Source of the DNA: a virus
Lineage: Duplodnaviria > Heunggongvirae > Uroviricota > Caudoviricetes
DNA length: 4,971 nt
Reading direction: 5' to 3' (one strand)
Virus record (IMG/VR): IMGVR_UViG_2548876945_000007
Below the pieces are notes generated by a model. That model searched no databases. It was not told the origin of the DNA and saw nothing but the letters and a program-made list of their open reading frames with translations. Numbering within the stretch: the first letter of the stretch is position 1; each line of letters starts with the position of its first letter. Positions 1 through 4,971 of this stretch are shown piece after piece. The position numbers and the translations under genes are program-made.

Positions 1-1
1 G

Positions 2-250
2 AAATGGGTGACCGATACTGAGGCACAGCATAGCGCCGCAGTAGACGCGGCAGAAGTACAGCGTCAGTCACTGATTAATACTGCAATGGCTTCCATTAGT
101 CTGATTCAACTTAAATTGCAGGCCGGGCGGCAGCTGATGCAGGCAGAGACCACCCGACTTAACACTGTGCTGGATTACATTGACGCGGTGACGGCAACAG
201 ATACCAGCACAGCGCCGGATGTCATCTGGCCTGAACTGCCGGAGGCGTAG
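2..250 (+). CDS. Tail fibre assembly protein, C-terminal part; the 5' end lies upstream of the window (frame is open to position 2, and the GTG at 8 is only the ORF-finder start)
   Basis: Translation ends ...LNTVLDYIDAVTATDTSTAPDVIWPELPEA, the C-terminal DTS-x-x-PD-x-x-WP signature I recall for lambdoid/Mu/e14-type Tfa proteins. TAG stop at 248-250. Converges on and overlaps the minus-strand tfa by 29 nt. Confidence 0.7.
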   Translation, partial: KWVTDTEAQHSAAVDAAEVQRQSLINTAMASISLIQLKLQAGRQLMQAETTRLNTVLDYIDAVTATDTSTAPDVIWPELPEA

Positions 251-660: not shown

Positions 661-1050
661 TTACACCCCTATAGCGATATAACGACCTAATACAGCGTTT
701 GCAGCAGTCGCTATGCTTGAAAAACCGCGGAACTGATTTGATGTAATTGCAGAAGCCGACAGGATTCCTGCGCCTGAAGGTGTATGCCCCACATGACTAA
801 CTATCATTCCATAACATGCTGACGGAAAGGCAAAAGGAAAATCATTAAGATATCCGGCATCTTCACCACCAGACCCACCAAATCTCGCCTGCCCCCACTG
901 AATAATCAGTGTTCTCCGGGAACCTGAAATAATTAACGGAATCGTTACATACCCATTCAGACCAATGACACCCGATGCAGTGCCAGCCAGAGATAATTCT
1001 CCCAAACCAACGTTTATGAAAATGCAGAAATAACAAGCAAATGGCATCAT
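661..1050 (-). CDS. Tail fibre C-terminal variable (receptor-binding) segment, silent orientation copy without its own constant N-terminal part
   Basis: Gly/Ser/Ala-rich 129-aa ORF directly upstream of the tfa on the same strand. The frame is open only 9 codons beyond the listed ATG, up to a stop at 1077-1075, and the crossover site at 987-1012 lies inside its 5' end. This matches the Sv'/U' half of a Mu G-segment or e14 P-segment arrangement. Confidence 0.55.
   Translation of the reverse strand: MMPFACYFCIFINVGLGELSLAGTASGVIGLNGYVTIPLIISGSRRTLIIQWGQARFGGSGGEDAGYLNDFPFAFPSACYGMIVSHVGHTPSGAGILSASAITSNQFRGFSSIATAANAVLGRYIAIGV
987..1012. other. Hin/Gin/Pin/Cin-family invertase crossover site (hix/gix/pix-like), the right boundary of the invertible tail-fibre segment
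   Basis: The 26-bp sequence TTCTCCCAAACCAACGTTTATGAAAA has two imperfect inverted 12-bp half-sites around a central AA. It matches about 21 of 26 positions of hixL as I recall it (TTCTTGAAAACCAAGGTTTTTGATAA), including the AAACC..GGTTT-like core. It sits 65 bp upstream of the invertase start, where gixR/hix sites lie relative to gin/hin. Confidence 0.7.
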
Positions 1051-1076
1051 TCCTGCTTTTAGTAAAGAGATTGATC

Positions 1077-1211
1077 ATGCTGATAGGTTATATACGGGTA
1101 TCAACAAATGAGCAGAATACAGCATTACTAGGAAATGCGCTCGAGTGCGCAGGATGTGAGCTGATTTTTGAAGACAAAATATTTCGAACACTTCTCCCAA
1201 TTTTAAAGTGA
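1077..1211 (+). pseudogene. Truncated serine DNA invertase (Pin/Gin/Hin/Cin family); only about the first 35 codons are retained, then the frame reads into unrelated sequence and stops
   Basis: Translation from ATG 1077 is MLIGYIRVSTNEQNTALLGNALECAGCELIFEDKI, closely resembling the N-termini I recall for Pin/Gin/Hin (MLIGYVRVSTNDQNTDLQRNAL.CAGCE.IFEDK) and including the catalytic-serine context RVST. After nt ~1181 the translation FRTLLPILK-stop (TGA 1209-1211) has no invertase similarity. The ORF is too short to appear in the supplied track. Confidence 0.75.
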
Positions 1212-1275
1212 AGTCGATGGTTTATGCTGGTGCCACGATTATTTCCTCCTGCTTCCCGGTTCAGAAAACAGTCGC

Positions 1276-1304
1276 GAAGAACCAGCCTTAACAGGCTGGT
1301 TCTT
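1276..1304 (-). terminator. Putative intrinsic terminator for the 870-aa gene
   Basis: Inverted repeat GAAGAACCAGCC (1276-1287) / GGCTGGTTCTT (1294-1304) with a 6-nt loop, beginning 7 nt past the TAA stop (1313-1311). On the minus strand a TGTTTTCT run follows the stem after a 6-nt spacer, so the U-tract is not ideally placed. Confidence 0.45.
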
Positions 1305-1310
1305 ATCGGC

Positions 1311-3923
1311 TTAGCTTACAGCTTGATCGAGATCTTCAAGTGCACAAATCATGGTTTCTACTGTTGCTCGGTCAAATTCAGCCCTTCCATCTTCCTCATG
1401 TGTGCCTTTGTTAAGATAGCGCCATTCTCGCGAATCTCCACTAATCCCAGTCAAAACGTCAATTGGACCAAAAACAGCACTTTTATTTTGATCAGTAAAA
1501 TCAGTTTTATTAATCTGTTTTTTTAATTGATCTGACAAATTACGTAACTCAATAGGTGAATTTGCCGACCGTAACTTAAGGCTAAGATTACCGTCACCAT
1601 ATTTATTTACATAGCGCCAGACCTTCACCTTCATCAGCGATTCAAGTGCCTGTCTACATTTAGCGAGAGCTTCCCTAATTTCATTACGTTCGTAATGTTT
1701 TCGTGCCGAGATAATGTAGTTCCTAGGGGCGCAGTTGAAATCGACACGAATATGCAATTCATCTAGACGTGGCAAGAAAGTGAAAGTCTTGGATTGAGCA
1801 GCAACCCGCGTAGGCAGTAAATTTTGGATATCTTTAAAAAATTCCTCTCCATGACAAGCTAGAATGATTTGCTTTTCGGCAAAGAACGTATCTTCAAATA
1901 ACGTTTTTCGAATGGAATCTCTATGATCGTCATCAATAGCATTTACCGGATCATCAAAAATTAAAAGTGGGCACTGCTCATTAATGTTTTTTGCCAATAA
2001 GATCGCTAGTCCTATACAGCGCACATGACCTTCACTTAGCACATGAAGGGCATCAAAATATTGTACGGGATTATTCTGGAACGCCACTTCCAACCGTTGA
2101 TTTTGCATCAGAGGTAATTTGATATCAGCGAGCTTTTCGCCTCTGGAATCATTACGGTTAAACGCATTATAAAGGGTAACAATGTTATCTCCGAGATTTG
2201 CTACGAGTTGCTGAGGTAAACGATCTTTATAGGCGTTCAATCGAATAACAAAGTTGGAATATGCCTCAGAAATTTCTTGGTTTTTCCTAACAATAGCTTT
2301 CTCATGCTCAACTTCATCAATAAGTTGCCTATTTTCGGCATTAAATCTGGTAATTAGCAACTGAGCTTCAGAGATGGACTTCTCTGTTTCCTCTCTTTTT
2401 GTCTGTAATATAGTTATCTGTCGTTCGGTTTCACGCAGACTATCAAGAGATTGCTGTTGCAGTTCTCGTCGTTTAATATTTTCATCTGTTTTTTTATCCT
2501 CTTTCTCCAGATGATGTACCTGTTCTTCAAGAAGAGTCCAAGGGGGTATCCCATCACCTGCCGGTTGCTGTAGTGCACACCACAAATCGCTTCCAGTTTT
2601 ATTTCGGAAATCTTCAAGTGGATTGCTATGCGGAATGAACTGACAACAAGTACTAATAACTTTATGAACGTCGAACATCAGCTGGCTGATTGATTTTTCC
2701 AACTGAGTTATTTCGTCTTGTAGTGTCGATAAAAACTTAAGTTTAAGCAATTCATTACTGGCATATTTGTAAGGGTTTTTTGCAACGTGCTGAAGTGGGG
2801 TATGACATGCAGGACAATGGTCAGGCTTGGTGCTTTGCAACTGGACTACGGCTTCAAATAAATTTTTAAAAGAAATTTGCTGACTTGCCTCTGCCAGTTG
2901 ATTTTGCTTGCCCTTAAGGTCTGTAAGCCCCTTTTCGACTGAATCACTGAGCTTTTTCAAAATGGCAGAGGTTAGACCACTCTTGGCCGGAAGCTGTTTT
3001 TGTAACTCGGTTTCAAGCTGCCGAATGACGCCGATATTTTGCCCATCCCCCTTCAACTCTACAACCATCTGATGGAAAGATATGCCTTCACGATAGCCTG
3101 AGGCTAGAGTTTGTTCTGCTGAGGTTAGTTCTTCAAGGTGGGCCTTACTCGTTTTCAGTTGCTGCTGTGCTCCCAAGAGAGATTGGCTCTTTGTTGCTAA
3201 TTGAGCAGCCTTTACGCCAGTCAGGTCGATATATCGGGCATCAATATCTGAGGTGAAATTTCGCACAAAATCATTAAATGTATCCAACCCGAATAATGTT
3301 GATATAAGTTCGGCTTGCTTTGCTGGGGCCAGAGCAGCGATTCTTGAAAAGCTGTCGATACGATTCTTTTCAATAAAACAAAAGCGATATTGTGTTTCAT
3401 TATTCTCAATCATCACATCCTGCTCTTGATCTCCAACACCTATAATTTCGGGAGCAGAAAACTGATTGACATATGCGTTTCTAAAATAGTCGTGTTGATT
3501 ACGAAAACGCTTACTTTCTGCCTCCGCGACGCGGCCCAGTAATGCGTATTCAAGTGCCTCGCAGAAACTGGATTTCCCCGTACCATTGGGGCCGTAGATC
3601 AGCACTAGGCGGGAATCTAAATCAAACTCCTCTCGTCTGGCAAATCCTCTAAATGGTCCAACAGACATCTTTCTAAGTCGGCTAAAGGTGGAAACACTTT
3701 CGGCGTTCTGCTCAGGGAGTGTTTGGACTTCTGGGCTGAGTGTATCCCAGGCGGATTGAGCCAGAGCGACAATACGTTTGACCCGCTGACCCTGTGCGGT
3801 TCCCAACGGCACGATTTCGTCAAGATTTTCCCACACAAGATTTGCTATTTTCCTTACATCACTTGGTACATCTGCTGTATTTAAGGTTTGAAAAAAACGC
3901 AACAACTCACTGCCGAGCATCAT
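1311..3923 (-). CDS. 870-aa Rad50/SbcC-like ABC ATPase with coiled-coil arms, CxxC zinc hook and a C-terminal putative nuclease/effector domain; RloC-like candidate anti-phage protein
   Basis: Uninterrupted 2.6-kb ORF in AT-rich DNA. Walker A GPNGTGKSS (aa 111-119; nt 3567-3593), CPAC hook (aa 370-373; nt 2805-2816) between two Q/E/K/L-rich coiled-coil-like stretches, signature-like LSEGH (aa 629-633; nt 2025-2039), Walker B LLIFDD (aa 653-658; nt 1950-1967), D-loop-like PVNAIDDD, H-loop His691, then ~170 aa C-terminal extension (aa 700-870; nt 1314-1826). SD-like AAGGA sits 3 nt before the first ATG (3923) and 6 nt before the second (3920), so the true start may be the second ATG. Confidence is for a real CDS with an ABC-ATPase fold; the RloC-like functional call is about 0.5. 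Confidence 0.88.
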   Translation of the reverse strand: MMLGSELLRFFQTLNTADVPSDVRKIANLVWENLDEIVPLGTAQGQRVKRIVALAQSAWDTLSPEVQTLPEQNAESVSTFSRLRKMSVGPFRGFARREEFDLDSRLVLIYGPNGTGKSSFCEALEYALLGRVAEAESKRFRNQHDYFRNAYVNQFSAPEIIGVGDQEQDVMIENNETQYRFCFIEKNRIDSFSRIAALAPAKQAELISTLFGLDTFNDFVRNFTSDIDARYIDLTGVKAAQLATKSQSLLGAQQQLKTSKAHLEELTSAEQTLASGYREGISFHQMVVELKGDGQNIGVIRQLETELQKQLPAKSGLTSAILKKLSDSVEKGLTDLKGKQNQLAEASQQISFKNLFEAVVQLQSTKPDHCPACHTPLQHVAKNPYKYASNELLKLKFLSTLQDEITQLEKSISQLMFDVHKVISTCCQFIPHSNPLEDFRNKTGSDLWCALQQPAGDGIPPWTLLEEQVHHLEKEDKKTDENIKRRELQQQSLDSLRETERQITILQTKREETEKSISEAQLLITRFNAENRQLIDEVEHEKAIVRKNQEISEAYSNFVIRLNAYKDRLPQQLVANLGDNIVTLYNAFNRNDSRGEKLADIKLPLMQNQRLEVAFQNNPVQYFDALHVLSEGHVRCIGLAILLAKNINEQCPLLIFDDPVNAIDDDHRDSIRKTLFEDTFFAEKQIILACHGEEFFKDIQNLLPTRVAAQSKTFTFLPRLDELHIRVDFNCAPRNYIISARKHYERNEIREALAKCRQALESLMKVKVWRYVNKYGDGNLSLKLRSANSPIELRNLSDQLKKQINKTDFTDQNKSAVFGPIDVLTGISGDSREWRYLNKGTHEEDGRAEFDRATVETMICALEDLDQAVS

Positions 3924-3943
3924 AAATCCTTTTTACTTGTTGA

Positions 3944-3972
3944 CTTCTAACGTTATATTGCAATGTTAGAAG
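3944..3972. promoter_or_regulatory. Inverted repeat (possible operator) in the 5' leader/promoter region of the 870-aa gene
   Basis: CTTCTAACGTT (3944-3954) and AATGTTAGAAG (3962-3972) are reverse complements with one mismatch, separated by 7 nt, 21-49 bp upstream of the start codon. I could not assign a convincing -35/-10 pair by eye. Confidence 0.3.
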
Positions 3973-4560
3973 ATACACTTTCAGATTATTTTTTCACGTG
4001 ATCTGCAAATCAAATTTTTACTAATGCTGGCTGATTCGTTATCGACAAACATGTCTTCCTTTTTCCATTCTTACCAGCGATCAGCAAAGCAAATTACACG
4101 GACATGTTACCAGAGTGGCTTAAACATTCTGCTGGTGGGCGCAGTTTCAGAGTGAGCATTAATTAGCAATAACTTATCCAACCACCCAGAGCTATATCCC
4201 AAATGATGGGGTCAAAATGCAGTTGTTCATTACGCTCGCTCAGAAGCATAACGGCGCTACGTTGAAACGTCCGATGGATTCTGGATCGTATGGAATGTCG
4301 CGTTCAACTTCTTCATGGAGTAGGCGAGACAATCTTCACGCGTCATTGACTATGAAAAGCGTCCACACCTAGAAAACTCCGGTCACCTGTAAGATTGAAA
4401 GTATAAGGTATCGTTCTACACGAAACGATTTGACTCCTATAACTGAAAAGCGGTGTCGGTAGTTAAAGGCATTAGTGCCTATTTGGCATATGGAAGCTGA
4501 GAAAGAAAAGAATGGTACTCGTTGATGGGGATAGTTTAAGCACAGTAATTTAAGTAGATG

Positions 4561-4591
4561 AAAAAGCAAAAAGCCCACATCTGTGGGCTTT
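4561..4591 (-). terminator. Rho-independent terminator hairpin, strongest for transcripts arriving on the minus strand from higher coordinates; possibly bidirectional
   Basis: Stem AGCCCACA (4572-4579) / TGTGGGCT (4583-4590) with loop TCT. On the minus strand the stem is followed immediately by TTTTTGCTTTTT (complement of 4561-4571). On the plus strand only TTT follows. Confidence 0.5.
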
Positions 4592-4600
4592 CATGTCACT

Positions 4601-4633
4601 AAGGAGCCGCGGCTCCTTTGCGTATCCTTTTTT
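4601..4633 (+). terminator. Second GC-rich hairpin followed by a T-run; possible plus-strand terminator or structured RNA element
   Basis: Perfect 18-bp palindrome AAGGAGCCGCGGCTCCTT (4601-4618), then a TTTTTT run at 4628-4633 after a 9-nt spacer. The spacing is atypical for a canonical intrinsic terminator. Confidence 0.3.
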
Positions 4634-4708
4634 GTCTCCTCACCGTCTGGTCGGTGTCCTGCTGAGACTGCTAACTACCTGTTTTTGTTGGTGTTGTCCT
4701 TACACCGT

Positions 4709-4722
4709 CCAATCATGATTGG
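4709..4722. promoter_or_regulatory. Perfect 14-bp palindrome, candidate dimeric protein-binding site
   Basis: CCAATCATGATTGG is its own reverse complement. It lies in a region without a convincing ORF. Confidence 0.25.
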
Positions 4723-4971
4723 TGGAGCTGGCGGGAGTTGAAACCGCAGGCATGTCGTATGCAAGAACGTGCTGCGGTTGGCTGGTGAACTTCCGATAGT
4801 GCGAGTATTGAATGATTTCCAACTGTTATCGATTTTGCGTATTTTTTGCATGAGAGGATTTTTACCTCCTCCCACCGATCCTCCATGGCTTTACGCCAGT
4901 GTCTCTGGTCTGCTATGTGCCAGGAGCAGCCATTGCTAAGTCCATCCTGTATTGTGCAGGTCAGCTCGTTT

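Follow-up and report, generated by a model that had tools for sequence, protein, structure and literature searches.

The window analysed here is a stretch of 4,971 nucleotides from a virus of the Caudoviricetes (IMG/VR record IMGVR_UViG_2548876945_000007), and the locus that it holds belongs to an E. coli prophage with Mu-like baseplate genes. From left to right it contains two tfa genes, a tail-fibre cassette, a 26-bp crossover site, the beginning of an invertase gene and a large gene for an SMC/Rad50-like ATPase. The coordinates of these features are collected in Table 1. All positions are those of the window, and negative numbers denote DNA to the left of it in contigs that extend further.

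Table 1. Features of the locus in window coordinates.
Feature	Position	Strand	Basis or remark
tfa of the currently expressed cassette, 3' part	1..250	+	Pfam Caudo_TAP, E 8e-19; window ORF 8-250
tfa' of the silent cassette, 145 aa	222..659	-	ORF list; Pfam Caudo_TAP, E 2e-33
Silent C-terminal tail-fibre cassette, 111 codons after ...GLGE	661..1010	-	Pfam Gp53-like_C, E 1e-12
Crossover site, right end of the invertible segment	997..1022		Exchange point at central AA, 1009-1010
Spacer from crossover site to invertase start codon, 54 bp	1023..1076	+	Direct reading
Pin/Cin-type serine invertase stub, 35 codons, MLIGYIRVSTNEQNTALLGNALECAGCELIFEDK	1077..1181	+	Alignment with pinE, gin and cin
Homologue of Fis-dependent recombinational enhancer	1095..1166		Homology to P1 cin nt 19-90
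Start of the DNA replacing the invertase 3' part	1182..1310		Includes hairpin 1270-1311, just downstream of the ATPase stop codon
SMC/Rad50-like ATPase gene, 870 aa	1311..3923	-	PADLOC LmuB, E 1e-26; Pfam SMC_N, AAA_23

Crossover site, invertase stub and enhancer homologue

The two tfa genes are convergent and overlap by 29 nt. The first is cut by the left edge of the window; in contig L008, where it is complete, it encodes 200 amino acids and extends from -352 to 250. The tail-fibre cassette that follows tfa' is silent, with no constant N-terminal part of its own, and is named in RefSeq as a separate 'gp53-like' or 'phage tail protein' gene. Scans of the window for Rfam families and for tRNA or tmRNA genes returned nothing above threshold.

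The crossover site, TTCTCCCAAACCAACGTTTATGAAAA, is present in the window as a single exact copy on the + strand. It remains unique when up to 3 mismatches are allowed, and no match was found in 200 dinucleotide-preserving shuffles. Two imperfect inverted 12-nt half-sites flank a 2-nt core, in the arrangement TTCTCCCAAACC-AA-CGTTTATGAAAA, and the total of 26 bp is the size of recombination sites of the Hin/Gin/Cin/Pin type (McLean et al. 2013). Comparisons were made against the K-12, Mu and P1 sequence records. The site is identical (26/26) to the pinE-proximal site of the P segment of the K-12 prophage e14, and it matches cixL, as annotated in the P1 record, at 19/26 positions with a core that is also AA, and the gin-proximal gix of Mu at 17/26 with a GA core. 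The inverted repeats published for the e14 P segment, TTGGTTTGGGAGAAGG and CCTTCTCCCAAACCAA (Kirigo et al. 2025, PMC12529663), correspond to the cores of the two e14 sites, pinE-proximal and in stfP. By these alignments the feature is almost certainly the known e14/Pin-type crossover site.

A sequence-only reading of the window had described a hix/gix-like site with inverted half-sites and proposed its comparison with catalogued sites, and the description stands up to that comparison. Its coordinates (987-1012) were too low by 10 nt. The distance of 65 bp that it gave to the invertase start is also to be corrected, as the ATG at 1077 lies 54 nt past the end of the site and 67 nt past its centre. 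The placement of the site inside the stf' reading frame is right in that the site falls within the ORF at 661-1050 (-), but that frame is opened by a spurious ATG (1048-1050) in the spacer, and its first 13 or so codons, beyond the crossover, are spacer read-through.

Only 35 of approximately 184 invertase codons remain in the window. Homology to pin ends at 1180/1181 in all 786 genomes that match this region, and the reading frame of the stub runs on into unrelated DNA as far as a stop at 1209-1211. At the DNA level the stub is about 84% identical to pinE and only about 86% identical to the nearest intact allele among complete E. coli genomes, and its peptide matches Cin at 30/34 residues. 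Two changes, Q18L and R19G, fall at columns that are invariant in intact genes and are located within the spacer between the enhancer blocks. The Pfam Resolvase match (E 4e-4) is under the curated cut-off, and in RefSeq the same stretch is an incomplete DNA-invertase. Relative to a locus like that of contig L003, window positions 1182-4738 substitute for the last 447 bp of pinE. An adjacent intact serine invertase gene, with catalytic and C-terminal DNA-binding domains, is absent from the window. The switch is not autonomous because its invertase is cut to 35 codons; the locus is the cis part of an invertase switch and not a complete system.

In the P1 record, nt 19-90 of cin are annotated as 'enhancer of Cin-mediated C-segment inversion'. 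A putative enhancer homologous to the whole of this element, which the sequence-only reading had suggested looking for, lies wholly within the stub. It agrees with the P1 enhancer at 58/72 positions, against 55-57/72 for P1, Mu and e14 among themselves, and at 46/48 of the columns invariant in four intact genes. The conserved blocks GTATCAACAAATGA (1098-1111) and GCAGGATGTGAGC (1149-1161) are intact, and the proximal block is followed by G in the window, by C in pinE and gin and by A in P1. The first conserved block is centred about 95 bp from the centre of the crossover site; for Hin, the spacing of enhancer to site is about 100 bp. Judging from this homology, Fis would be expected to bind here. 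We considered retention of the enhancer as a sign of selection and rejected it, as about 84% of random breakpoints in the 555-bp gene would leave nt 1-90 untouched.

Beyond the truncation point, CTTCTCCCAA at 1191-1203 repeats the inner 10 nt of the crossover site, recurring 10 bp past the point where the invertase is cut, and TTCTCCCAATTT (1192-1203) is a 9/12 half-site without a second half. The chance of some 10-mer of the site recurring there is roughly 0.1-0.2. The half-site could be due to chance or left over from whatever event removed the invertase. We considered it as the mark of an invertase-mediated deletion and set that reading aside, as the match is partial, lies 10 bp from the breakpoint and is compatible with chance.

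The ATPase carries a CxxC pair (HCPACH) and has Lamassu LmuB as its best PADLOC match. It stands alone, and the window has no LmuA-like partner for it. The hairpin adjoining its 3' end was found in an inverted-repeat scan. The ATPase gene is cargo whose arrival removed the 3' end of the invertase gene. The same slot is occupied by mcrA in e14 and by a GIY-YIG gene in L003, and because these three genes alternate there, the DNA that follows the invertase gene has the look of a variable slot for cargo or defence genes.

Partner site and inversion of the segment

An exact look-up of the 870-aa ATPase protein returned ten contigs. Three of them, L008, L012 and L014, match the window over its full length at 100% identity. 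In L008 and L014 a partner site, CTCTCGAAAACCTTGGTTTGGGAGAA, is found at -845 to -820, which is 0.82 kb to the left of the window. It is inverted relative to the window site, with cores TT/AA and a centre-to-centre distance of 1842 bp, and it is also the site found within stfP of e14. The partner lies in a 256-aa stf gene (-1122 to -352; L008 14276-15046) downstream of ymfQ and the Mu-like baseplate genes. Contig L012 is uninformative on the partner owing to a single-N assembly join 71 nt left of the window, inside tfa (L012 13995). All other related loci examined have exactly two such sites, in inverted orientation.

These contigs bear out the expectation, drawn earlier from the window alone, that a partner site and the constant region of the tail-fibre gene should lie to its left. 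The proposal that the site and the two convergent tfa genes (8-250 on the + strand and 222-659 on the - strand, both Caudo_TAP) make up half of a host-range-type switching segment is likewise upheld, the other half being seen in the contigs identical to the window.

When the segment is inverted in silico at the two cores, the sequences of both sites are preserved, and the silent cassette is joined in frame to the 101-aa constant part (...ALENLGLGE) to make a Stf of 212 aa. The start of tfa' is then located 2 nt past the new stf stop codon. The segment as found has a 256-aa Stf and a 200-aa Tfa in the expressed position, and the inverted segment would have the 212-aa Stf and the 145-aa Tfa'. 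The predicted fused junction occurs in at least 17 complete E. coli genomes, with 96.5-98% identity over 350 bp; in one of these that was checked, pinE is intact. For the window's own combination of silent cassette, site and stub/ATPase junction, exact-pattern scans of the genome and viral contig sets gave 0 matches, and the combination is in no complete E. coli genome.

The stub/ATPase junction is present in 16/5426 complete E. coli genomes. Two of the strains with this truncated invertase, 779 (L004) and 165 (L002), carry the prophage in the same place next to prfC, with flanks that are identical at 99.94% (5.1 kb) and 100% (9.8 kb). Between these flanks, 1945 bp are inverted exactly between the repeats at 99.85% identity, so that for these sister loci the segment is seen in both orientations with breakpoints at the site core. 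The base just outside the central AA is G at the left site and C at the right, and in both strains it has remained attached to the outer flank. This limits the exchange to a perfectly matching stretch of 15 bp whose end is the central AA, as serine-invertase cleavage predicts.

Cassettes also vary more widely among the stub-bearing genomes. The silent cassette next to the stub is of type B in one genome and of type A in five, and 14 stub-bearing loci present at least six cassette types beside an almost identical stub. The StfE-type cassette is in the expressed position in some of these loci and silent in others. The window's own cassette pair is found beside the stub in one orientation in 6/6 loci (L006-L009, L012 and L014).

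A second match to a chimeric query is found in 11/15 stub-bearing complete genomes, including 165 and 779. From genome counts we infer that this match is a pinQ/pinR-like gene, because the chimeric query adds only four genomes over pinQ alone, and four is also the number of stub-bearing genomes with a single match. The latter four of the 15, namely FDAARGOS_1262, E1, CUVET16-321 and SX12, gave no match for a pinQ-like gene. Strain 165 has no second pinE-like 5' region. Overall, pinQ-like genes are present in 2751/5426 genomes, and the pinE-like 3' part in 1147-1873. Inversion of the e14 P segment has been shown for PinQ and PinE, and the authors state the same for PinR (Kirigo et al. 2025, PMC12529663). 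Flipping of this segment is also seen in K-12 cultures during growth (PMC4272514).

A probable orphan switch and its alternatives

The reading that we favour, with a probability of roughly 0.78, is that the window holds the invertase-proximal site of an e14-type invertible P segment, and that this segment is an orphan switch, invertible only in trans because its own invertase has been destroyed and its cis elements kept. In the complete locus, the constant 101-codon 5' part of stf ends in ...ALENLGLGE, encoded by the left site, and between the inverted 26-bp sites about 1.84 kb hold two alternative 3' cassettes for stf, each accompanied by a tfa gene. According to this model, a dimer of the serine invertase on each site would cut at the central AA/TT, and Fis on the enhancer about 95 bp away would promote DNA rotation and rejoining, by which the segment is flipped. 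The flip would fuse the other cassette and its tfa to the constant part and so bring them to expression. The prophage's own invertase is gone, the rest of its gene replaced by the ATPase gene, with both sites and the enhancer homologue surviving. Inversion would then depend entirely on an invertase supplied in trans, for which the likeliest candidate is another prophage's enzyme of the PinQ/PinR or PinE type. It is likely, with somewhat less assurance than the reading as a whole, that the orphan locus is still invertible today by invertases of other prophages. Binding of Fis here, the enzyme that acts and the continued flipping of this copy are all inferred.

An additional role for the site is conceivable, and we put it forward only tentatively: it could serve as a joint for cassette swaps between prophages, the present locus being a recombinant made there. 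Aligned to L003, whose cassettes are the same and whose pinE is intact, the window shows 5 mismatches in 1-996, 0 in 496-1024 and 25 in 1025-1181. Aligned to L004, where different cassettes lie beside the same stub, it becomes similar only from 997 on, with one mismatch up to 1400. The two mismatch patterns place the change of lineage within the 26-bp site, and by these alignments the window locus is a recombinant with its joint inside that site. The presence of six or more cassette types next to the same stub is also supportive of swaps. However, the wild-type invertases of this family carry out inversion only within a single molecule (McLean et al. 2013). The joint would be explained equally well by homologous recombination in a conserved patch of 65 bp (997-1061), and chance would put a joint in the first 28 bp of that patch about 40% of the time.

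More direct competition to the orphan switch comes from a locked fossil, in which the site is intact only because the invertase was lost recently, no recombination has occurred there since, and homologous recombination has carried the block of stub and ATPase into related prophages whose segments already differed in state. We consider this unlikely. It would be in keeping with the single orientation of all six loci that have the window's cassette pair, and with a stub and ATPase flank that is 99.6-100% identical across loci with at least six different silent cassettes. The 65 bp of 997-1061, nearly identical between lineages, could support the homologous exchange, and the element is found at different chromosomal sites (prfC, ssrA and near xdh). 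The L004/L002 pair, however, shares its chromosomal site, and the near-identity of its flanks and of the inverted segment, with breakpoints exactly at the repeats, is the pattern of a simple inversion and not of an import. Moreover, inversion in trans by PinQ at identical sites has been published (PMC12529663).

The inversions between genomes could in principle have been made by RecA-dependent recombination of short inverted repeats, which we regard as very improbable. The repeats do share 20 nt with one mismatch, and no invertase acting at these loci has been directly identified. Efficient RecA-mediated exchange in E. coli usually needs about 23-27 bp, and the exchange interval of only 15 bp of perfect identity is below this and ends exactly at the known cleavage dinucleotide. 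That the hix/gix resemblance is a chance match in an AT-rich spacer has next to no probability, given the empty shuffles even at 3 mismatches, the full identity to the e14 site, the Mu-like distance of 67 bp to the invertase start and the inverted partner in every complete related locus.

The orphan switch can also be extended to a proposal on function, namely that it is kept and run by PinQ/PinR-type enzymes for the benefit of the host and forms, with the Lamassu-like ATPase, one defence islet at the prophage end. We judge this improbable. If it were true, the benefit to the host might be, for example, the masking of phage receptors by the alternative Stf, as reported for StfE2 of e14.

Relation to known systems and minor observations

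The closest counterpart is the e14 P segment (stfP/tfaP/tfaE/stfE, with PinE). The right site is the same at all 26 positions, the left site is identical, and both have a central AA. The order of genes is also alike: ymfQ, the constant part of stf with the same ...ALENLGLGE end, two cassettes with convergent tfa genes, and then the invertase, as in the K-12 order stfP-tfaP-tfaE-stfE-pinE. The Stf expressed in L008 is identical at 205/256 residues to the K-12 post-inversion product (StfE2 type), and the lineage of the window is in the 'StfE-on' state. StfE2 blocks adsorption of phage T2 (Kirigo et al. 2025, PMC12529663). The window differs from e14 in the truncation of its invertase to a stub that has diverged from pinE, in a silent cassette of another type, in the 870-aa ATPase gene at the position of mcrA, and in a prophage end with an ssrA core, where e14 has icd.

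The G segment of Mu, inverted by Gin, resembles the locus in that its tail-fibre gene is made up of a constant and a variable part, with two cassettes, and contains the site within its coding sequence. In Mu the crossover, taken as the annotated G-segment boundary, precedes the gin start codon by 67 bp, just as far as in the window, and the enhancer blocks are likewise within the first 90 nt of the invertase gene. The Mu site, in contrast, matches at only 17/26 positions with a central GA in place of AA, and the Mu segment is about 3 kb long with an intact invertase. The P1 C segment is similar in its cixL site (19/26, central AA), in its enhancer (58/72) and in Cin itself, which matches the stub peptide at 30/34 residues. 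It differs in that cin is on the other side, with cixL overlapping the cin 3' end, and in having a 4.2-kb segment and an intact invertase. A segment turned by the invertase of another prophage has precedents in PinQ and PinR acting on e14 and in Fin of Fels-2, which reportedly acts on hix. There the segment has its own invertase as well, whereas for the window action in trans would be obligatory.

The site, its partner, their geometry and inversion by invertases of other prophages are thus already known from e14. Nothing in the locus is outside the Hin/Gin/Cin/Pin paradigm, and it is an ordinary variant of a known system. As a natural invertible segment without its own invertase, yet with both sites and an enhancer homologue, it offers a convenient natural substrate with which to determine the E. 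coli invertases that work in trans. Otherwise identical genomes have the segment in different orientations, a possible source of confusion when genomes are compared; beyond annotation, the importance of the locus is little.

Several observations concern the annotation and assembly of such loci. The tail-fibre gene of strain 50EVAW (L001 6883-7656) is annotated as 'integrase'. In strain E7476 (L018 5161-7775), where the window's silent cassette is expressed, an IS66-family element inside the invertible segment splits a tfa gene. Contig L006 has a run of 1142 N (13276-14417) over both tfa genes, and L012 has its single-N join (13995) in tfa. We had considered L006 as a locus with replaced tfa genes and L012 as one without a partner site; both candidates were rejected, the first being the run of N and the apparent absence in the second the assembly join. 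Tail-fibre modules of this kind, invertible and rich in repeats, evidently pose difficulties for assembly.

At the other end of the window, positions 4720-4747, read in the sense of the - strand, are a copy of the last 28 nt of ssrA (tmRNA); no tmRNA gene is present in the window. Because the same stretch is the true ssrA 3' end in L005, it is the attachment-site core that marks the end of the prophage. Within 4736-4842 there is an element of about 40 bp with an 8-bp dyad, AACCGCAG...CTGCGGTT, that shares 86% identity with the sequence directly following the stop codon of pinE in L003, and the surrounding 107 bp (4736-4842) are 83% identical to the left end of the K-12 prophage Qin. By these matches the element is one common to prophage ends. 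At about 4100-4400 (-), RefSeq annotates a frameshifted, truncated pseudogene of an SOS-response-associated peptidase in sister genomes.
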